A stretch of DNA of 64,000 nt from contig OZ241384.1 in NCBI GenBank assembly GCA_965200805.1, positions 763,305 through 827,304 on the forward strand, in the 5' to 3' direction. Below are positions 1,539-33,396 of the stretch, piece by piece (position 1 is the first letter of the stretch; every line of letters begins with the position of its first letter). Made by a program: the position numbers and the translations under genes. The notes beneath the pieces were generated by a model. It saw only the letters and a list, made by a program, of their open reading frames with translations, was not told the DNA's origin and ran no database searches. Origin of the DNA: Paracoccaceae bacterium. GTDB taxonomy: Bacteria; Pseudomonadota; Alphaproteobacteria; Rhodobacterales; Rhodobacteraceae.

Positions 1539-4358
1539 TCAGTGTGCATCGGCCCAGTTGTCGGCAACACCGGCATCGACCACGAGATGCGGCTCAATTG
1601 CCAGGGCCGGCCGGTCGGCTGATTCCATGAGTGGCTTGGCCAGGGCAATGAACTCTTCAACAAAATGATCCCGGACCTCAAAGACCAGCTCATCATGAAC
1701 CTGAAGCAGCATCCTGACCGGCAGCGCACGCATCGCAGGAGCCAATCGGATCATGGCGCGGCGGATGATGTCTGCGGCGGATCCCTGGATGGGTGCATTG
1801 ATTGCAGCCCGGCGCGCAAACTGTCCCTGCGGGCCGCCGGAGTTGATGGATGGTGTGTGGATTTTACGGCCGAAGAGAGTTGTGACGTATCCATCCTTCT
1901 TTGCGGATCGAACAACCTGATCCATATAGCCCCGAATCCCCGGAAAGCGTTGAAAGTACAGGGTGATAAAATCCTGGGCCTGGTGACGCGAGATGCCGAG
2001 ATTCCGGGCAAGACCATATGCCGAGATTCCGTAGATCACACCAAAATTGATCGCCTTGGCCTGCCGACGGTTGTCTGGATCAACATCGGAAAGCGGAACT
2101 TCGAAAACCTGGCTTGCGGTCATCGCATGGATGTCCTGCCCCGCACTGAAAGCCTCCTTGAGAGATGTGATGTCCGCCTTGTGCGCCAGGACACGAAGTT
2201 CGATCTGGCTGTAATCAAGTGAGACGAGCTTATATCCCTCTTCCGCAACAAAGGCCTCGCGGATGCTTCGGCCCTCGGATGTTCGAATCGGGATGTTCTG
2301 CAGATTGGGTTCTGAGGAGGCGAGACGTCCTGTGTTCGCGCCGGCAATACGATAGGAGGTATGCACACGGTCAGTCTGCTCGTTGATATGTGCAGGCAGG
2401 GCCTCAGTATAGGTTGAACGCAGTTTTGACAGATGCCGCCAGTCCAGGACGAGTTTTGGAAAGTCGTATCCGGCAGCTGCAAGATCTTCCAGAATCCGGG
2501 CATCGGTTTTGTACCCGCGCAGGGTCCGCTCCTCCCCTCCGGGGAGATTCAGATCCTCAAACATGACCCGTCCAAGCTGCATGGGGCTGCCAATGTTGAA
2601 TGACTGACCGGCAATCTTGAATATGGACGATTCCAGCTGGGCAAGATTGCTCCCAAACCGCTGGGACAGCCGGTGGAGATGATCAGCATCAACCCTGATT
2701 CCGTGACGCTCCATATCCACAAGCACGGGGATCAGGGGTCGATCAAGGGTCTCATAAACTGTAGCGACCCGCTCCATCGGCAACCGGGGCTTGAAAGTCT
2801 GCCACAAGCGCAGGGTAATATCTGCATCCTCGGCAGCGTAGCGGGTGGCATCAGCAATTTTGGTATTCTGGAATGGAATTGCCTTGCGTCCCTTGCCGAT
2901 CAGATCCTCAATTGGAATTGGCTTGTGGTTGAGATACTTCTCCGAGAGGAGAGTCATGTTGAGATTGTGCAAACCACTGTGCAGGGCATAGGCGAGCAGC
3001 ATCGTGTCATCAACCGGCTCGACCGTGACACCATGCTGCTTGAATATCTTGAGATCGAACTTGATGTTCTGGCCAATCTTCAGGATGGCAGGATCCGTGA
3101 GCATCGGTGTCAGGCGCTCAAGGGCGTGATCAAGACCAAGCTGGCCATCTATCGGCCGGTTGGCTGCGCCAAAAAGACTGTCCCGCTCCTTGTGTTGAAG
3201 CGGGATATAACAGGCCTGGCCCGGGGCACAGCAGAGGCTGATGCCAACCAGCCTGTCCTCCATTTCATTCAGCCCGGTCGTTTCCGTATCAATCGCCACG
3301 AAGCCACAATCATTGATGGTCGCAAGCCAGCGGTCAAGAGCGGCATCGTCGATGACACATTCATAGCCTGCCGGATCAATCGGCATGATGTCAGCCATCG
3401 TCCCGCTGCCTGAAGGAGCAATCATGTCCCGACGGATTTCAGGCATCTGCGGCGGGTCGACCTTCATCAAACGGGCGGCGCGGCGCACGATGGTCCGGAA
3501 TTCCTGTTCCAGCAGGAATGCAAAAACCGTGTTTGGATCAGGATCCCGGATGGCGAGTTCGTCAAGACAGACCGACAGCGGTGCATCCCTGCGCAACTGA
3601 ACGAGTTCCTTGCACATCCGAATCTGATCAGCGTGTTCGGTCAGAACCGCCCGACGCTTCTCCTGGGGGATTTGATCCGCATTTGCCAGCAGACTTTCAA
3701 GGTCACCGAACTCCTCGATCAGCTGCGGTGCAGTCTTGGCCCCGATCCCTGGTGCGCCGGGAATGTTGTCACTGCTGTCACCGGTCAGCGCCTGGACATC
3801 GACAACACGCTCGGGATAGACCCCGAATTTGTCATGAACCTCCTCACGACCGATCTCCTTTCGCTTCATGCTGTCATACATCACCACGCCACCACCCACC
3901 AATTGCATCAGATCCTTGTCAGATGAGATTATGGTGACCTGTCCACCAGCCCGATCAGCCTGATCGGCCAGGGTGGCGATGACGTCATCGGCTTCAAATC
4001 CCTCGAGCTCAAGACATGGAATATTGAAGGCACGGGTTGCAGCACGGGTCGATGCAAACTGGGGAACGAGGTCGTCCGGTGGTGCATGCCGGTTTGCCTT
4101 GTATTCCGAATAGATATCATTCCGGAATGTCTTTGATGAGTAGTCGAACACCACGGCACAGTGCGTTGGATCACGATCATTTTCCAGGACATCCTTGAAA
4201 AGCATATTGCAAAAGAAATGCAGGGCACCCACCGGTGTGCCGTCCGAGCGATAACGCTGTTCAGTCCGCAGACTGCGCTCTGCCATGTAAAAGGCCCGAA
4301 AGATAAACCCCGATCCATCAACCAGCAGCAGGTGGTGATTTTCGCCGAATTCTGACAT
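1539..4358 (-). CDS. polA: DNA polymerase I
   Basis: ~940-aa ORF. It has a 5'-3' exonuclease N-terminus (LLLVDGSGFIFRAFY), a 3'-5' exonuclease domain (FVAIDTETTGL) and polymerase motifs (LVSLDYSQIELRVLAH, INFGVIYG, QVHDELVFE). The longest ORF reaches 4385; I prefer the ATG at 4358 (MSEFGENHH). Confidence 0.95.
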   Translation of the reverse strand: MSEFGENHHLLLVDGSGFIFRAFYMAERSLRTEQRYRSDGTPVGALHFFCNMLFKDVLENDRDPTHCAVVFDYSSKTFRNDIYSEYKANRHAPPDDLVPQFASTRAATRAFNIPCLELEGFEADDVIATLADQADRAGGQVTIISSDKDLMQLVGGGVVMYDSMKRKEIGREEVHDKFGVYPERVVDVQALTGDSSDNIPGAPGIGAKTAPQLIEEFGDLESLLANADQIPQEKRRAVLTEHADQIRMCKELVQLRRDAPLSVCLDELAIRDPDPNTVFAFLLEQEFRTIVRRAARLMKVDPPQMPEIRRDMIAPSGSGTMADIMPIDPAGYECVIDDAALDRWLATINDCGFVAIDTETTGLNEMEDRLVGISLCCAPGQACYIPLQHKERDSLFGAANRPIDGQLGLDHALERLTPMLTDPAILKIGQNIKFDLKIFKQHGVTVEPVDDTMLLAYALHSGLHNLNMTLLSEKYLNHKPIPIEDLIGKGRKAIPFQNTKIADATRYAAEDADITLRLWQTFKPRLPMERVATVYETLDRPLIPVLVDMERHGIRVDADHLHRLSQRFGSNLAQLESSIFKIAGQSFNIGSPMQLGRVMFEDLNLPGGEERTLRGYKTDARILEDLAAAGYDFPKLVLDWRHLSKLRSTYTEALPAHINEQTDRVHTSYRIAGANTGRLASSEPNLQNIPIRTSEGRSIREAFVAEEGYKLVSLDYSQIELRVLAHKADITSLKEAFSAGQDIHAMTASQVFEVPLSDVDPDNRRQAKAINFGVIYGISAYGLARNLGISRHQAQDFITLYFQRFPGIRGYMDQVVRSAKKDGYVTTLFGRKIHTPSINSGGPQGQFARRAAINAPIQGSAADIIRRAMIRLAPAMRALPVRMLLQVHDELVFEVRDHFVEEFIALAKPLMESADRPALAIEPHLVVDAGVADNWADAH

Positions 4359-6861: not shown

Positions 6862-8067
6862 CTATCCTGAAAGCAAAGTGTTTTGTTCAGGCATGTAGGC
6901 TGCGCTCACCAGGGTCGCGGCGGCACCTATTGTTCTCGCCTGTCGCCCAAAAGTACCCGCTTCCACCTCGGGCATCAGAACCCCCTGCAAATCCGTCTGT
7001 TGAAGCTGGGAAATGACCTCGGACACCAGTCTCCCCGTGACTTCTGTCGGCATGGCGCCATCGATGATAACTGCTTCAAAGTCGATGATGGATAATGATG
7101 ATATGACAGCATGAGCCAGGTTGCGTCCTGCTCGTGTGATCCAATCGGAAACCAGCGGTTCAAATCTTCCCCAGTCATCCGAGGCTTCATAAGGCGAAAA
7201 TGAGCGACCGGTGATATCCAGGACCATCCGTTCCAAGGTCACGAGGGAGGCATGATCCACCAACCTGTTCCCACCCTCCTGATCCGGAACCCGCATTGGT
7301 CCAAAACCACCGGCATTTCCCCTCCGCCCGCGAAACACATGCCCATTCAAAACAATGCCGCCACCGATGAAGGTGCCGACGTAAAAGTAGATCCAGTCCT
7401 GCTTGTCTGCATGGGATCCAAAAACCACCTCAGCCCGACAAGCCGCCGTCGCGTCGTTTTCCAGGACAACTTCCCATGGCACGATTTTTCCGATTTCGCG
7501 TTCGGCGTCAAAGTCCTGCCAGGCTTCCATTTCCTCGGCCGGAGCATCAAAGTCGTCAGTCCAGTGCCACAGTTCGAAAGGCATCGCTATGGCCATGCCA
7601 GAAATGGCCTTGCAGGTTCGCTTCGCCGAGCAAAGGAGATCCTGCAGTTCATCCTGCACAAATCTCAATGTGGTGGCCGGAGTTGGAAATGGCTGAAACA
7701 TCTCTTTTGACGTGACCACCTCACCCATAAAGTTGACCACCGCAAGTTCCATACTGCGGCGTCCTATTTTCAGGGCGACATAGGAGTGCGCCAGCGGATT
7801 GATTCGAAGAGGGGTCGAGGGCGCGCCAACTCTTCCACGAATCGGTTCGCCGCGCAGCAGCAAACCGTCGGCTTCCAGAGAGCGAAAAATCACGGAGATC
7901 GCATTCGCGGAAAGCCCGGTTGCACGAGTCGCCTCGGCTTTGGACAACTCTCCATGTTCTCGCACAAGTTGCAGCACAAGCCGCTCGTTGTAATTGCCTA
8001 CGGCAACCTGGTTCGTTCCCCTCTTGGGGTTCGCACACAACCGTTCTTCTTTGTCTTCCTGATCCAT
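6862..8067 (-). CDS. ROK-family transcriptional regulator
   Basis: N-terminal winged helix-turn-helix (NERLVLQLVREHGELSKAEATRATGLSANAISVIFRSLEADGLL) plus a ROK sugar-kinase-like body (GTFIGGGIVLNGHVFRGRRGNAGGFG). The start is taken at MDQEDKE. Confidence 0.85.
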   Translation of the reverse strand: MDQEDKEERLCANPKRGTNQVAVGNYNERLVLQLVREHGELSKAEATRATGLSANAISVIFRSLEADGLLLRGEPIRGRVGAPSTPLRINPLAHSYVALKIGRRSMELAVVNFMGEVVTSKEMFQPFPTPATTLRFVQDELQDLLCSAKRTCKAISGMAIAMPFELWHWTDDFDAPAEEMEAWQDFDAEREIGKIVPWEVVLENDATAACRAEVVFGSHADKQDWIYFYVGTFIGGGIVLNGHVFRGRRGNAGGFGPMRVPDQEGGNRLVDHASLVTLERMVLDITGRSFSPYEASDDWGRFEPLVSDWITRAGRNLAHAVISSLSIIDFEAVIIDGAMPTEVTGRLVSEVISQLQQTDLQGVLMPEVEAGTFGRQARTIGAAATLVSAAYMPEQNTLLSG

Positions 8068-8386
8068 ATCAATCCATTTGCATCCTGTTGACCATCCCCG
8101 GCAAGTGCCGCACGGGTTTATGCCCAATGCCAGCTGCAGTATTCACCGCAGACATGAGCAGATTAACATGATTATTAATTCATAAAGAAGTAATTATTGA
8201 CAGAGGTCAATTGTTTGCATAGGTCATGTGCTGACGGCGAAGTCGTCGGCGGGAGAATGGCCTGGGGAGCGGGGAAACCGTTATCTGGTATATCAGGGAC
8301 ATGACTCTCAGCAAATTGTGGGAGCCGATTCAATCCATTGGAATGGCTCGATTTTCAGGCTGATTAATTTTGGAGACCAAAATGAA

Positions 8387-8535
8387 GGGGATTATATACT
8401 TAAGTAACAATTATCATAATTTATTTCATATAATCAATGACATAGACCATCTGTGCTCATGGATAGCAATTCAAACATAAAATACTGATTATTATAGACT
8501 AATTTGATTTTTTGTTACTTAAGTATATAATTCCC
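8387..8535 (+). mobile_element. MITE copy 1 (149 bp, non-coding, AT-rich)
   Basis: Terminal inverted repeats GGGGATTATATACTTAAGTAAC ... GTTACTTAAGTATATAATTCCC. Flanked by the 8-bp direct repeat AAAATGAA (8379-8386 and 8536-8543). Homologous to the copies at 28992 and 30255. Confidence 0.85.
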
Positions 8536-8538
8536 AAA

Positions 8539-9549
8539 ATGAACTATATCAAAACCGGTGTTGCGGCTCTGGCAACCTCGATCTGCGTGGGAGGAGCCGC
8601 CGCAGACACCAGCGTTTGTCTCATCACCAAAGACGCGACAAATCCATTTTTCGTAAAGATGGCCCAGGGTGCATTTGCGAAAGCGGCCGAAATCGGCGTC
8701 GAACTGCGCTCTTATGCAGGCAAGTTTGACGGCGATCATGAAACTCAGGTTGCCGCCATCGAGACGTGCATTGCAGCGGGTGCCGGTGGTATCCTGTTGG
8801 CGGCATCGGACACCAAGGCGATCACGTCATCAGTTGAGCAGGCACGCAGTGCCGGTCTTGTGGTATTGGCATTGGACACACCGCTTGATCCAATTGACGC
8901 CGCAGACATGACGTTCGCAACTGACAATTTCCTCGCAGGTGAACTGATCGGTGCCTGGGCCGCGAAAACAATGGGTGACACCTCAGGTGCCAGAATCGGT
9001 CTGCTCAACATAAATGTCTCGCAGCCAACCGTCGGCGTCCTTCGCAACCAGGGATTCCTGACCGGTTTTGGGATTGATATTGGCGATCCTTCGAAATGGG
9101 GCGATGAAACCGACCCGCGCATCGTCGGCCACGAACTCTCCAATGGTAATGCCGAAGGTGGTCGTAAAGGTATGGAAAACCTCCTCGCCATTGATCCGGG
9201 AATCAATGTTGTCTACACGATCAATGAGCCTGCCGCCGCGGGCGCCCATGAGGCTCTCAAGGCTGTTGGACGCGAAGATGACGTCATCGTTGTATCGGTG
9301 GACGGCGGCTGTCCAGGTGTCGCCGATGTCGCCGCGGGCGTGATTGGTGCTACGGCCCAGCAGTATCCCCTGGACATGGCCAGTCTGGGAGTTGAGGCAA
9401 TTGTCAAAGCTGTTGAAACAGGTGAAATGCCGGTTGCGACAGAAGGAAAAGCCTTCTTCGACACTGGTGTTGGCCTCATCACCAATGCACCGGTTGATGG
9501 CCTTGACCAGCTGTCTGTTGCTGAAGGCGCAGACCTCTGCTGGGGCTGA
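8539..9549 (+). CDS. Sugar ABC transporter periplasmic substrate-binding protein (ribose/fructose-binding type)
   Basis: Signal peptide [22 protein letters not shown], then [19 protein letters not shown], typical of the Peripla_BP_4/RbsB-like fold. First gene of an SBP-permease-ATPase operon. Confidence 0.85.
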
Positions 9550-27778: not shown

Positions 27779-28572
27779 TCCTGATCTTTCCACCTCCGCA
27801 TTTCGAATGATGCCGTCACGACCCGAATCGTGAGAGGAAAGAGTGCCGTCAGCATGAAACTGCGTTGACACCCCTGTCCGATCATTGATCCCCAAAAATA
27901 TCATAGGCCCCGGCAAGGCCAAAGAACAGGACCGCAAGGGTAAAGAATTCTCTCCCCTCTGTCATGTTTTCTTCAGATTCTGCAGAATCACCATAAGAGA
28001 ACTGGCATCAGTGTTTTGGCTCCTCACGTCAACATTTTGACATCGGCACGACCTCATAATCGCAACAACAGGCATGGTTCCAAATGAAGGCGTCTACTTC
28101 CCTGAGTCTCCCTGCAACCCAGGTTTCCCCACAACATATGAACTGCCCGACAGGAGATGCCCAATGCAGGATTCTCGATGAAGGCACATGCCCCGGCATT
28201 CAGTGGCACGATTATTGATCTCGACAGTCCCAACGAACCGGTTCATCAAGTTTCCGCAGCGATCTCATTCTGACCCGCCCGGCACTGATGCAGAATACAG
28301 GTCAAGTCCTGAAAATAGCCATTATCACACCTTTCACATGGCCCATGATACAGCATGAATGGCATCTTGGACAGAGGTCCATGAGGGCGGATGTCTTGAG
28401 AGTATGGTGTTCAGGAATTGTCGCCGCACGTGAACCCCTTGGAGGCTGTTGTGTTCTGGCATCATGTGACCACCGATCAGCACCAAATCAGAGGGCACCG
28501 TCCTACATCTTGGGTGAATTATATCCGGTTGGGTCGTGCGGGCATCTCTATAATTGGTACTGATACAATAAG

Positions 28573-28827
28573 TCAGCCATGATGCACATGGGGCAGGATC
28601 AAGAGAGGCTGATCCTGTTCGGCCATGGCAGTATCAAGATAGTCACGACCGCTGATTCCCTGTATCTGCAACTGTTCACACAACATCAGAGTTGACAAAA
28701 ACCGCCTCCGGGTTTCAGCAGCATCTCCGGCAATCCGCTGTGCGGTTTCTGCCTCGAATCCGAACTGGGACTGCATGACATCCCGCGGCATGAGTAATGC
28801 CAATCGCTCAAGCTTTTCGATCTGCAT
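28573..28827 (-). CDS. Hypothetical protein (possible last gene of the AT-rich membrane-protein operon)
   Basis: 84-aa ORF with a helical-looking sequence and no motif I recognise. The same frame stays open upstream, apart from one TGA, back to the MITE-2 target site. Confidence 0.3.
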   Translation of the reverse strand: MQIEKLERLALLMPRDVMQSQFGFEAETAQRIAGDAAETRRRFLSTLMLCEQLQIQGISGRDYLDTAMAEQDQPLLILPHVHHG

Positions 28828-28991
28828 GCGGGCACGATGACATCATAAAGCCTTCGTATCGTCGAGCATAAGAAGAGCCTTGGATTGCACCGATCCACAC
28901 ATGGCAAGACCACGCAATAGGGTTTCAAGCCATAGAGCATCCAGCCCCCCATCTTGCGGAGATCCATGATCCGTTCGTTTATCCTATTAAA

Positions 28992-29140
28992 GGGGATTAT
29001 ATACTTGAGTGACCAATTTCCTAATTTATCTCATATAATCAATAACATAAACCAACTGTATCCATAGATGGGAATTAAAGCATAAAATACTGATCCTTAT
29101 GGACTAATTTAATTTTCTGTCACTTAAGTATATAATCCCC
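28992..29140 (+). mobile_element. MITE copy 2 (149 bp)
   Basis: Same TIRs as copy 1 (GGGGATTATATACTTGAGTGAC ... GTCACTTAAGTATATAATCCCC). The 8-bp direct repeat is CTATTAAA (28984-28991 and 29141-29148). It is inserted in the 3' part of ORF A. Confidence 0.85.
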
Positions 29141-29703
29141 CTATTAAAGCACAGAGGCATTTCTTCCTCTGCACTGCGAAGAACTGGGGACGAATCCTGT
29201 CGTAACGAGGCCTCATCAAGACGCTCAAGATGCGTTTCAATCCCAACCAGAATATCAATCAATGTGTTCAGTCTGAGATCTGTCGGAATACGATCTACCT
29301 TCTCTTCGATCGTGGCAAGATCAGTCTTAAGGCCCCGCAGACGGTTCAGAATCATTGCTGTGCTTGCAACAGTGACGCCAATTCCAACAATGGACGACAC
29401 CAATGTCGCCAGCTGCAAAGTCTGCAAGCTGCCCATCATGCCCTGCATGATATCCAGGCGGGATTTGATCTGTTCATTCTGCACGATGCCATAGATCCCG
29501 CTCGTCGAATTAAGCATGCCCAGAGGACTGAGGCGACCGGCATTACTGATGAGTGCGTTCAGCGCGCCGGTCTCCTGCACATGTGCGACAATACGCCCCG
29601 TACCAGCATCGTGCAGCATGGCTCCGATGCGCCTGATGTCCCCAGTTGCCACACCGGCAGCAAATTTATTAGGGATCTCAAACGGAATATTTGAAAAGAT
29701 CAT
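29104..29703 (-). CDS. Hypothetical single-pass membrane protein 'A'; C-terminus replaced by MITE-derived codons
   Basis: The start ATG overlaps the stop of ORF B (ATGA at 29700-29703). It has an N-terminal module GVATGDIRRIGAMLHDAGTGRIVAHVQETG, a TM helix LATLVSSIVGIGVTVASTAMIL and a coiled-coil tail. The last 12 codons (GIIYLSDRKLN) are MITE sequence. Confidence 0.55.
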   Translation of the reverse strand: MIFSNIPFEIPNKFAAGVATGDIRRIGAMLHDAGTGRIVAHVQETGALNALISNAGRLSPLGMLNSTSGIYGIVQNEQIKSRLDIMQGMMGSLQTLQLATLVSSIVGIGVTVASTAMILNRLRGLKTDLATIEEKVDRIPTDLRLNTLIDILVGIETHLERLDEASLRQDSSPVLRSAEEEMPLCFNRGIIYLSDRKLN

Positions 29704-30550
29704 GCTGTTCCTTTCAGCATTATGTCTCGTGCTCTATCGATTTCTTGCCTAAAGTGAGCCCAGGAAGATTGAGATTTCACTTTGTCACACTCAGCCAAGA
29801 GATTGTAGTGTATAGTCTTTTTCAGATTATTTTTATGACGGTCTTTGGACAAGCGTCCCGCTTTCTTGAGGAGGGTGGGCGAAAGATAAGCCAGTGACGC
29901 GGCTGCGGCACCAACAACGAGAAATACCGGCCAAGAAAACGTGACAACCGGTATGACAAAAAATATTGTGGATGTTGTTGTCGCCAACGATGTAGCCCCC
30001 AAGGCAAGACCGCCTGAAGCAAGAGCGGCGGCGGCACCTGCGGAAGCGACAGACATTTCCACCTTACTTGCATTCAGTGACGTGTCCAGATTCCCAAAAC
30101 GCTCCAGAGATTCTGCAAGGGACATCTGAAGATCTGCTGCAAGGGATCTGTTGACTGCCATGATGCTTTCTTCAATCTGCTGATGGACAGGCCTTAGAGC
30201 CTCTTCCCGGCGCAACAACAGATCTCTGTCAGGTATTGACTCAACCTTCTCAAGGGGGATTATATACTTGAGTAACCAAAAAAAAATTAAATTAGTTCAT
30301 AAGGATCAGTATTTTATGCTTTAATTCCCATCTATGGGTACAGTTGGTTTATGTCATTGATTATATGAGATAAATTAGGAAATTGGTTACTCAAGTATAT
30401 AATCCCCTTCTCAAGGGTCAATTGAGAAATCCGCTCTGCGGCTGTCCGGCATTCATTGAAGGCTTGTTGACGTATTTTCTCCCACCATTCAATGATTTCC
30501 ATGCGCTGGAGATAATGAAAAGAGAGGGGATCATTGCATGAAGCGTTCAT
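29700..30550 (-). pseudogene. Hypothetical membrane protein 'B', split by MITE copy 3
   Basis: GGAGG lies 6 nt before the ATG at 30550. Deleting 30255-30415 (the element plus one TSD copy) joins ...AAERISQLTLEK to VESIPDRDLLLRREEAL... in frame, giving ~230 aa. It contains a Gly/Ala-rich double hydrophobic segment. It is a paralogue of ORF C at both termini. Confidence 0.6.
30255..30407 (-). mobile_element. MITE copy 3 (153 bp, inverted relative to copies 1 and 2)
   Basis: Its reverse complement is nearly identical to copy 2. The 8-bp direct repeat is TTCTCAAG (30247-30254 and 30408-30415). Confidence 0.85.
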
Positions 30551-30588
30551 GCGTTGCCTCCGCCCCATATTGGCCTGTTATGGTGCAG

Positions 30589-31062
30589 TCATGGTATGAT
30601 GTCATTACTCTCTACTTGCCTCAAACGGATATCCCTCGCATCATCGATTACTTTTTTGAAATGAGCCCAAACCGTGGGCGGGGTGCTGTCATCTTCGGTC
30701 AGCGGATGGTTGCGGATAGTTGTTTGCAAATGGATTTTATTGTTTGTGAAGGGGACTTCCATCTTAACGGACAGTGGTTTTGGCATGTGCAGCGATGCGG
30801 CCAGAGCACGGCAGAATGTCTCAATCCCTGCTTCAACCACTCCCCGCATCCTTTCCTGCTTCTTTTGCCCAAAGATATTATCATAAACGGTATCCTCGAG
30901 ACCCATCTTCTCCTCTTCGTTTTCGAAGCAGGCTTTGGAAATCTTCTCTGCAGCTTTGCAACAAGCATCAAAGACACGAGCGTGCTCTGCCTCCCACCAT
31001 TCAATGATTTCCATGCGTTTAAGCTCTGGAGGATTCGCAGGCACAGCAGTCCTCTCATTCAT
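30589..31062 (-). CDS. Hypothetical soluble protein 'C', paralogue of B without the membrane segment
   Basis: Shares with B the N-terminal RMEIIEWWE...F..C..AAEKIS and the C-terminal WAHFKKVIDDARDIRL. AAAGGGA lies upstream of the ATG. Confidence 0.5.
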   Translation of the reverse strand: MNERTAVPANPPELKRMEIIEWWEAEHARVFDACCKAAEKISKACFENEEEKMGLEDTVYDNIFGQKKQERMRGVVEAGIETFCRALAASLHMPKPLSVKMEVPFTNNKIHLQTTIRNHPLTEDDSTPPTVWAHFKKVIDDARDIRLRQVESNDIIP

Positions 31063-31822
31063 GAAGTGATCCCTTTTGACACTTGCGACAGTGAGTGCTG
31101 GACCATGGGAATGTCCCGCTCTCTGTTAAAACTTCTCTGAGCGGCAATGCCTTGTCTGCGTTTGTCAGCTTTTACTTCCCCGCACAACCCGGTTCTTCTG
31201 ACGGTGCCTGATCAGGGTCTCACAGAGTGTGGGGATCTGGCCGCACGCCCTCCGATGCCGGAATCCCGCCTCGGCCCCAACATCCCTGCCATGGCCCAAC
31301 GCAGGGCCATCTTCACATCCCCCATCCCATCCACCACAGACTGGTGCTTCACACTGCAACCCATCCCGGGATAACACCGTTCGGAGTTCGATGATGCTGG
31401 TACTCGCCAAGGAACGCCGCAACTCCGGGTGGCTGGTTTCCGTTGGTATTGTAAGGCACCGCATGTCATCGTGACACATGACAAATTTCAGGACCGCACC
31501 GAAGACACAATCGATTTTGCAAGTGAAAGCCAGACTGCTGGGAATCAGCCCGATAATAGTCCTTGACCAGCATGGGTGAAGAATCCGCTATAGAAAGACC
31601 CGCTCCATTCTGATTTATCGTTAGCAGCATATCAGAGTGGAATGAGGGTGATGATGTTTCTTGCCCATTACTTTGCGTTCTTGTACTGCTGGATGTCACA
31701 ATCCGCACGAATAAAGAAGGGAGCGTTGTGTCGGACATCACGCCAACCTGAGAAGTTTCTTTTTTTGGAATCCCAATTCCTAAAACCAACTTGTTTGTGA
31801 GTTGCCTTCCTGGAGACACCCC

Positions 31823-33396
31823 ATGACCCGTAAGTCTCTGCCCATCGGCATCCAGGACTTCGCAACGATCAGGAGCGAAGACTTCTACTGTGTCGACAAG
31901 GCCCCCTCATCCGGCAGCTGGTGGCGGGTGGCCGCCACCACTTCCTCTCCCGTCCCCGCCGCTTCGGCAAGAGCCTGCTCCTCGACACGCTCCGGGCCCT
32001 CTTCGCGGGACAGGAGGCCCTGTTCCGGGGCCTGGCCATCCATGACCACCGGGACTGGGCCGCACCGCCGCATCCGGTGCTGCGACTGAGCTTTGACGGG
32101 AGATACAGCACACCGGGGGAGATCGAAGGAGATGTTCTTGAGCAGCTGGAGGCCGTCGAGGATGAGTATGGCCTCACGCCAGGGAGCATGTCCAATACAG
32201 GACCGCGGCGGCTCCGCAACCTTCTGGACCGTCTCCACCACACGACCGGGCAGCAGGTGGTGGTCCTCGTGGATGAGTATGACAAACCCATCCTCGATGC
32301 ATTGCCCGACCCCGACCGGGCCCGCGCCAACCGGGAGTCCCTGCGCAGTGTGTACGGCATCATCAGGGGCAGCGCCGCCCATGTCCGCTTCGTCCTCGTC
32401 ACCGGTGTCGGCATGGTCTCCAGGGTCGGCCTGCTCTCCGATCTCAACAACCTCAAGGACATCAGCCTCGATCCCCGCTTCGCCGCCATCTGCGGCTGCA
32501 CGGACGCCGATCCCGACACGGTGTTCGCGCCCGAGCTTGACGGATTGGACCGGGAGGCCATCCGCACCCGGTGCAACGGCTACAGCCGGCGGGGGGACGC
32601 GCGTCTCCGCAATCCCTTCGATGTCCTGCCTCTCCTGCGGAAACGGGAGTTCCGCCCCTACCGGTTCCGGGCCGGCGCCCCGCGCTTCCTCTTCGAGACA
32701 TTGAAGGCCGGATCGGTCGGCCCCATGGAGCCGGAGGGATGCCTGGCCGACCGGTCCCCGGTCGCGAGGTTCGAAGGGGGCGACATCAGTGCCGAGGCCC
32801 TCCTCTTCCAGACCGGGCCCCTCACCGTCACAGGCGAGCGGAGCGACGGCTTCGACACCCTCCACAAGCCGGACCATCCCAACCGGGAGGTGCGCATCAG
32901 CCTGAACCGGGGACTGCTCCGGCATCTGGGCAGGGCGGTCACGGAAGCCGCCGGCCAGGGCCGTGATCTCTGCACCCGTCTCGGGACAGGTGACCCCGAA
33001 GGCTTCGCGGAGACCCTCAGGGCCTGGCCGGCCGGCATTCCCTGCCAGTGGCACGCCGCAGGCGCCCGCGCCCGCTACGCGGCCTGGCATGCCGGTCTCC
33101 TGCACATGGCCTTCCGTTCCATCGGGGTGGAGGTGCAGAGTGAGGCGGCCTCCGGCCATGGCCGGGCCGACATGGTGGTCCATCTCGGGGATCAGGTGTT
33201 CATCCTCGAGTTCAAGATGGCGGACAGTGCGGATGCCGCACTGGACGCCGCACTCGACGCCGCCTTCACCCGGATGCGGGAGAAGGGGTATGCGGAGGGA
33301 TGCCGGGACCATGACGGGCCCGTCCATCTCATCGCCATCGCCTGCGGGCGGGAGGCGCGCAACCTCTTGGAGGTGCGGGCGGAGCCCGCGTCCTGA
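31823..33396 (+). pseudogene. AAA-ATPase-like / PD-(D/E)XK nuclease-family protein (DUF1703-type), frameshifted
   Basis: GGAGA lies 7 nt before the ATG at 31823. MTRKSLPIGIQDFATIRSEDFYCVDKA is in one frame and PLIRQLVAGGRHHFLSRPRRFGKSLLLDTL is in the next. The switch is at the C5 run 31902-31906. The C-terminal GRADMVVHLGDQVFILEFK is a PD-(D/E)XK-like core. The DNA is very GC-rich. Confidence 0.75.

Follow-up and report, generated by a model that had tools for sequence, protein, structure and literature searches.

A pseudogenised operon with a JukB-like gene and a non-JukA partner in a Paracoccaceae bacterium: a probable remnant of a defence module

JukB is the effector of the two-gene Juk system, in which JukA (formerly YaaW) senses an early jumbo-phage protein and recruits JukB, whose tetrameric pores permeabilise the early-infection vesicle of the phage and not the inner membrane of the host (bioRxiv 10.1101/2022.09.17.508391; PMC13282480; PMC13434031). 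The cell survives the action of JukB, and the two proteins differ strongly in their distribution, JukA being a widespread modular sensor present in about 21% of genomes and JukB one narrow effector present in about 1% (PMC13434031). Within the cell JukA has been described as diffuse in the cytoplasm (bioRxiv 10.1101/2022.09.17.508391). The system of Pseudomonas aeruginosa PA14 (PADLOC PDLC04114/04115; PDB 9JHT; Li et al., bioRxiv 2022 / Cell 2025) served as the reference for the work described here, which deals with an operon in a 64-kb stretch of DNA from a Paracoccaceae bacterium (the whole stretch is called the window in the following). With their open reading frames (ORFs) all on the minus strand, three genes make up this operon between positions 28573 and 31062, in the order C-B-A. 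We read it as the pseudogenised remainder of a C-B-A operon that was acquired horizontally and that encoded a pore-forming defence module akin to Juk, though with a new partner, and we put the probability of this reading at roughly 0.6.

Relationship of protein A to JukB

Searches of A, B and C, and of the members of the B family, against Pfam, NCBIfam and PHROGs gave no family above threshold. An earlier note on this DNA had stated that none of the proteins can be assigned to a named family, and for B and C, for which these searches were empty, this is still true. It is not true for A, as 39 of the 41 members of its family match the PADLOC JukB model PDLC04114, the best of them with E 1.4e-17. 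The matches are collinear over profile positions 6–162 of 323, as for example in P0069, where residues 6–149 correspond to positions 8–150, and the A of the window matches the same model with its residues 77–139 at profile positions 75–137 (E 7.5e-6). The architecture of the A family consists of an N-terminal beta domain with the invariant motif ...TGRIV.H.QETG, a VQNEQIK helix, a hydrophobic helix with an invariant IGV and, as the C-terminal part, a helical bundle of about 200 amino acids (aa).

From an alignment of 40 sequences an AlphaFold2 model was made for the homologue P0006, whose identity to A is 61%. The model (predicted local distance difference test score, pLDDT, 73.9; predicted template modelling score, pTM, 0.68) shows a small beta domain, a region of low confidence at residues 47–110, into which the VQNEQIK helix and the first part of the hydrophobic helix fall, and at residues 111–308 a helical bundle that is predicted with confidence. 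In a Foldseek comparison with the PDB, chains B and A of 9JHT ("Jumbo phage Killer B") were found at ranks 2 and 3 with probabilities of 1.00 and 0.99, template modelling (TM) scores of 0.41–0.51 over 293–301 aligned columns and E values of 0.08–0.1. No other natural protein among the leading hits was aligned near full length at a comparable TM score; a designed helical assembly (8fbj, rank 15) was aligned over 299 columns with a TM score of 0.36–0.38.

JukB and A thus share a length of about 320 aa, the similarity of the N-terminal half at the level of hidden Markov models (HMMs) and possibly, to judge from the predicted model, the overall fold, and both are encoded by the second gene of a two-gene operon with a patchy accessory distribution that lies partly beside defence genes. 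They differ in that the similarity is remote and the sequence of 9JHT is missed by the A-family profiles, and in that the upstream partner of A is never JukA/YaaW but an unrelated membrane-anchored protein. The hosts are different as well, since the A branch is centred on Rhodobacterales and Sphingomonadales with some Beta- and Gammaproteobacteria. A is a distant member of a JukB-like family, and because of the Foldseek E values of 0.08–0.1 and the failure of the profiles to reach 9JHT we name it "JukB-like" and not a typical JukB. The idea of an undescribed system built only from unassignable proteins has to be given up, as A belongs with JukB, the effector of the published Juk system. Already known is therefore a published and structurally solved relative of the A family; new, in a view that does not include a comparison with the list of JukB homologues of the Juk authors, are the non-JukA partner family and a coherent B-linked branch of JukB-like proteins.

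The partner B, its paralogue C and the B-A pair

B is a helical bundle of about 230 aa whose two halves are split by a Gly/Ala-rich hydrophobic hairpin, and from its predicted topology this hairpin should fix the protein in the inner membrane in such a way that the N- and the C-terminus both face the cytoplasm. JukA/YaaW (DUF3944 and a Cbp3-like chaperone domain) resembles B in being encoded upstream of a JukB-like gene and in its size of 237 aa, but there is no sequence relation between them and the central hydrophobic hairpin of B contrasts with the diffuse cytoplasmic location reported for JukA. The possibility that B is a divergent JukA was rejected, as none of 32 B-family members matches any JukA model and the comparison of the B family with Escherichia coli YaaW by hhalign resulted in a probability of 0.18%; E. 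coli YaaW itself, the JukA reference, scores E 1.3e-57 on PADLOC JukA. YaaW of E. coli K-12 (L065) possesses a Gly-rich hydrophobic C-terminal stretch (...GLLRGAGLGGPVGAALNGVKAV...) with a composition like that of the B hairpin, which is not collinear with it and is unrelated according to hhalign. In a phmmer search with E values of up to 10, neither the 60 loci carrying A relatives (7–8 kb on each side, less at contig ends) nor the 64-kb window yielded a JukA/YaaW homologue, the rest of the genomes not being searched.

In order to describe the B family we relied on an exhaustive profile search, which returned 71 relatives (representatives of 50%-identity clusters) from 1.84 billion, while only 10 proteins were obtained when a B profile of 32 sequences was used in a word-indexed search. 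The 71 relatives are 118–416 aa long, mostly 200–250 aa, and among them there is no larger multidomain or dynamin-sized protein and none that links to a known family. No family dedicated to B exists in Pfam, NCBIfam, PADLOC or PHROG. An AlphaFold2 model of the B homologue P0004 (pLDDT 64.4) shows long helices flanking a hairpin of low confidence.

B and C align at their N-terminal (...RMEIIEWWE...) and C-terminal (...W.HF+..ID.ARD...) helices with C being gapped over the hairpin, and the B-family HMM matches C at E 5.4e-11 and the 3' part of B at E 1e-41. This bears out the proposal that the two are paralogues and that B alone carries the hairpin. C can be described as a lineage-specific duplicate of B without the hairpin, and C-type copies are limited to three places, being a separate gene in the window and in L002, the locus most closely related to it, and part of a tandem fusion in L029. 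In the latter, a Rhodobacteraceae metagenome-assembled genome (MAG), a 663-aa ORF at 2102–4093 upstream of the A homologue contains a B-like and a C-like unit in tandem. It was considered as an informative domain fusion and dismissed, as it holds only the two B-family units and no other Pfam domain. In five further loci (L037, L045, L048, L049 and L051 from Ottowia, Comamonadaceae, Rubellimicrobium, Pseudacidovorax and Burkholderiaceae) the sole B partner has a longer N-terminus and no hairpin, showing that a membrane anchor of the partner is not universal.

Loci with A relatives were compiled from a scan of one genome per species, which gave 57, and by exact look-up, which gave another four. 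In 58 of 60 loci the gene before A belongs to the B family and ends where A begins, and a stop/start overlap was seen in the loci with called genes (L001, L002, L006 and L007). Intact B-A operons are present, for instance, in Sulfitobacter mediterraneus CP081109 (L007, with B-A at 7336–8942, covering 3467802–3484743 of the record), in Methylotuvimicrobium buryatense 5G and on a plasmid of Sphingomonas sp. NBWT7. From the co-occurrence of A, B and C that the earlier note had named as a check, the B-A part is conserved whereas C is confined to the three places named above, so that the conserved unit is the B-A pair and not a C/B pair with a third protein. A census of the neighbouring genes of the loci gave no third conserved gene. 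For L001 and L002 the ratio of nonsynonymous to synonymous substitution rates (dN/dS) amounts to 0.19 in A and 0.34 in B at a dS of about 0.75, and to judge from these values intact copies of both genes evolve under purifying selection.

The pair is found in Alpha-, Beta- and Gammaproteobacteria and a few others, with most of the hosts belonging to Rhodobacterales and Sphingomonadales and further ones being Methylomicrobium, Methylotuvimicrobium, Pseudomonas MAGs, Comamonadaceae, Ottowia, Thauera and few others. The flanks differ between the loci and mobile genes are common in them (resolvase, IS110, IS66 and IS1595 transposases, integrase). Genes with a link to defence were encountered as well, as L002 has an AAA_15/AAA_21 ATPase, DruA, Peptidase_M78 and Beta_protein as neighbours, L007 has BrxA, and BrxC, PglZ, type I restriction-modification, McrBC and DprA-like ShosA/PsyrA are present at other loci. 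The DprA-like protein of 242 aa lies just downstream of B-A in L006 (9583–10308) and L008 (8596–9321), matches Pfam DNA_processg_A as well as PADLOC ShosA and PsyrA, and may be part of an adjacent Shosta- or PsyrTA-like system. An apparent enrichment of BrxL beside B-A was discarded, since two of the three "BrxL" matches are ordinary Lon proteases with a Lon substrate-binding domain. No A homologue is present in 50,697 phage records; five were detected in plasmids, all of them annotated as hypothetical. The association with defence islands or prophages that the earlier note had considered is thus found only in part, with defence genes at a minority of loci and no A homologue in the phage records. 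All in all, B-A is an accessory and horizontally mobile module with a partial, not a strong, association with defence islands.

Gene structure, insertions and order of decay

The operon lies in an islet of low G+C content (0.466 and 0.464 at 29–31 kb, compared with about 0.55–0.60 in the rest of the window), in agreement with the foreign composition noticed before. Gene C (30589–31062, minus strand, as for all following genes) is intact and encodes 157 aa, a soluble paralogue of B without the hydrophobic hairpin. Gene B is split into two parts and appears as the ORFs 30332–30568 and 29700–30218. Its 5' part (30408–30568) comprises codons 1 to about 54 and starts with ATG at 30568 or at 30550, the second of which is used by the MITE-free allele P0002 (MITE, miniature inverted-repeat transposable element). 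Its 3' part (29700–30254) encodes the Gly/Ala-rich double hydrophobic segment (about 29892–30053) and the C-terminal helices. The stop codon of B and the start codon of A overlap as ATGA at 29700–29703, just as had been described.

Gene A begins with a 5' part at 29141–29703 (codons 1 to about 187; the ORF runs from 29104 to 29703), which encodes the beta-rich N-terminal domain (about 29566–29703), the VQNEQIK helix, the transmembrane helix (about 29347–29418) and the start of the helical bundle. The 3' part at 28573–28991 encodes the C-terminal helical bundle and the conserved end ...GISGRDYL...PLLILP, and is collinear with full-length homologues. When MITE 2 and one copy of its target duplication are removed, the frame is shifted and a TGA codon is read through, A is a single gene of about 324 aa. 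With this reconstruction as query 67 homologues were obtained, the full-length ones being 313–345 aa long and covering 97–99%, and they align collinearly over their whole length, up to and with the C-terminal ...GI.GR..L...E...PLL.LP. As the homologues run through it, the possible fourth ORF of the earlier note (28573–28827) is the C-terminus of A, and the operon has three genes and not four.

Apart from the insertion, A carries two further lesions, giving three in total. The first is a frameshift at 28945–28950, where the coding strand has a run of six G and seven would keep the frame; the sequence ...RKMGG is followed by LDALW... only after a change of frame, and the homologues read ...G(E/Q)xxLDAxWL... 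in a single frame. The suspicion of an additional lesion at this run, seen as C6 on the forward strand, was therefore correct. The second is an in-frame TGA at 28843–28845 (...TKAL-stop-CHRAR...), which had escaped the earlier note. It adds one codon compared with the homologues, which align with a gap at this position, and it looks like a 3-nt tandem duplication (TTATGATGTCAT), judging from the sequence.

The element that interrupts A and B is a MITE, as follows from its size, inverted ends, target duplications, copy number and the empty sites in relatives. Its terminal repeat GGGGATTATATACTTGAGT has 6 matches in the window, belonging to three elements, against 0.00 expected from shuffled sequences, and all three elements are 149–153 bp long with inverted ends of 22–25 bp and direct duplications of 8 bp. 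The copy at 8387–8535 (149 bp, target duplication AAAATGAA) is more diverged than the other two. Copy 2 (28992–29140, 149 bp) is inserted inside A and is flanked by the target duplication CTATTAAA at 28984–28991 and 29141–29148. Copy 3 (30255–30407, 153 bp, with perfect terminal inverted repeats of 25 bp) interrupts B and is flanked by TTCTCAAG at 30247–30254 and 30408–30415, the latter copy being contained in the 5' part of B. Deletion of MITE 3 and one duplication copy leads to a continuous B frame of 235 aa that reads ...ERISQLTLEKVESIPDRD..., which is the predicted junction exactly, in a protein for which about 230 aa had been foreseen. Furthermore, three metagenomic contigs (L003–L005; source annotated as uncultured Rhodobacteraceae/Paracoccaceae bacterium) are 99.7–99.9% identical to the window and have both insertion sites empty, and the MITE-free B protein P0002 carries this junction naturally. 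The reconstruction of B is thus not hypothetical. MITE 2 does not replace the 3' end of A, as had been assumed, but is inserted in the middle of the gene after about codon 187 of about 324, and A continues beyond the element.

The sister alleles also reveal the relative order of the lesions. Across the operon the window and L003 differ by a single indel, an additional G in the B gene of L003 near window position 29898, and hence the loss in the G run and the TGA of A are common to the window and L003–L005. Since the MITE-free alleles have these point lesions too, the inactivation of A preceded both MITE insertions. From the two knock-outs by MITEs postulated earlier both insertions are real, whereas the one in A hit a gene that was already inactive. 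In L003–L005 the extra G results in a +1 frameshift in B and in a product of 185 aa (P0002), and B has therefore been inactivated independently in two lineages of one species, by a MITE in the window and by the frameshift in L003–L005. C is intact in all of them. The history of the locus would start with the horizontal acquisition of a C-B-A operon, of which this genome would now hold a decayed remnant; A lost its frame in the G run and acquired the TGA, and only afterwards did the polymorphic MITEs insert into A and B of this strain.

Degraded or split B homologues were also observed at other loci, namely in L008 (6357–7010, with a scrambled hairpin) and, as two fragments each, in L028 (6223–7010) and L030 (1043–1663), which suggests either a repeated decay of the module or frameshift errors in the assemblies. 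A scan for promoters and terminators in 28300–31900 gave nothing above the shuffled expectation. Immediately upstream of the operon the plus strand (31802–33396) has two ORFs that overlap in different frames, one of 95 aa starting with MTRKSLPIGIQDFATIRSEDFYCVDKAP and one of 491 aa from 31921. They look like one frameshifted gene, the N-terminus of which may resemble AAA-ATPase-like/PD-(D/E)XK proteins.

Possible function and competing explanations

By analogy with Juk, A would be an oligomeric alpha-helical pore-forming effector. B takes the operon position of JukA though being unrelated to it and, if anchored in the inner membrane as predicted, might either sense a membrane-proximal infection cue or restrain and recruit A as a kind of gate. 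C-type paralogues could modulate the pair, C possibly as a soluble modulator. A role in defence is the best guess, and a bolder proposal, which we regard as tentative and would give slightly less than even odds, is that B-A represents a distinct two-gene defence system in which a JukB-like effector has been rewired to a new inner-membrane sensor or gatekeeper, with some lineages adding soluble hairpin-less B paralogues (C; Comamonadaceae type). The description of the operon as a translationally coupled, membrane-acting module of foreign composition that is inactivated here fits the ATGA overlap, the low G+C content, the hydrophobic segments and the lesions. A parallel is offered by Dionysus, where DinC (an alpha pore-forming toxin) together with DinA/DinB also combines a helical pore-former with membrane-associated partners and is proposed to target phage-derived membranes. 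It differs from B-A in gene number and domains (MAEBL, TerB), and the likeness is conceptual only.

Several observations weigh against a Juk-like defence module. The A of the window covers just 63 residues of the JukB model at its E of 7.5e-6, the HMM matches are confined to the N-terminal half of the A family, and the Foldseek E for the P0006 model against 9JHT lies at 0.08–0.1. Neither the full A-family profile nor its N-terminal half nor the most JukB-like member retrieved the 9JHT sequence from the PDB, yielding only coiled-coil or chance hits. The model of P0004 is of low confidence and without a significant structural neighbour in the PDB and BFVD (none with E <= 0.001). Neither the 60 loci nor the window contain JukA, the partner by which JukB is defined, and the trigger logic of Juk can therefore not be transferred. 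Finally, defence genes adjoin only a minority of the loci and many neighbours are housekeeping genes.

The main rival explanation is a self-targeting toxin/immunity or abortive-infection pair, in which A, after its release by B, would make the inner membrane of its own cell permeable and thereby kill or arrest the infected cell, rather than act on a vesicle made by the phage and leave the host unharmed. According to the predictions both proteins, A with its transmembrane helix and B with its anchor, are expected in the inner membrane of the host, and so close a coupling of translation is a usual trait of toxin-antidote pairs. The family lives in marine Rhodobacterales and Sphingomonadales, for which nucleus-forming jumbo phages are not known to have been described, a point that we count in favour of this rival, and the repeated decay in the window, L003–L005, L008, L028 and L030 would fit a costly toxic module. 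The order in which the genes died in the MITE-free alleles, first A and then B, would be expected if B is an essential antidote and is expected equally under neutral decay. JukB as the only characterised relative is reported to spare the inner membrane of the host, and the cell survives (PMC13434031), and all considered we regard the self-targeting pair as unlikely, though as a serious competitor of the Juk-like module.

Even less probable, in our opinion, is a membrane-remodelling or envelope-stress module with B as a dynamin-stalk- or paddle-like protein akin to the C-terminal part of LeoBC from the dynamin-like Eleos system. It would suit the housekeeping neighbourhood of many loci, and 11 of the 32 B-family members indeed match PADLOC LeoBC (best E 8.2e-7) at positions of about 341–555 of 601, its C-terminal helical/membrane-binding part. 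This similarity is marginal and may be compositional, as the matches take in the hydrophobic Gly/Ala stretch, which is of low complexity. Among the fold matches of B, LeoA and the MxA/MxB stalks have E of about 1 or worse and are surpassed by designed helical bundles. B with its about 230 aa has neither a GTPase domain nor a LeoA-like partner; no dynamin-type GTPase domain was found by Pfam and NCBIfam in A, B or C, nor does one recur among the neighbours, and the size range of the 71 B relatives leaves none of dynamin size. The patchy distribution, the mobile context and the low G+C content rather fit an accessory function.

A prophage lysis cassette or holin-like module, the latter being a role named as possible in the earlier note, and both suggested by the small genes for membrane proteins and a weak Pfam match of B to Phage_holin_3_6 (E 0.013), is effectively refuted by the score of 16 bits against a cut-off of 28.4 bits, by the lack of a holin-family match in all 32 B-family members at E <= 0.01, by the absence of PHROG matches for A, B and C and of A homologues in the phage records, and by the fact that endolysin or structural phage genes do not recur beside the pair.

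The window copy cannot work, and its use lies in being a dated case of decay in several steps, first by point lesions and then by polymorphic MITEs, in a Rhodobacteraceae/Paracoccaceae genome that bears MITEs. If the bolder proposal of a distinct two-gene defence system is true, JukB-like pores would be a modular effector class that extends beyond JukA and Pseudomonas-type jumbo phages. While the published emphasis has been on JukA as the modular component, this locus points to the converse, a JukB-like branch coupled to a different membrane partner. Should the pair function in defence, it would provide a second entry point to the question of how JukB-type pores are triggered and kept harmless, and it would bring marine Alphaproteobacteria, methanotrophs and Comamonadaceae into the range of this class of effectors.

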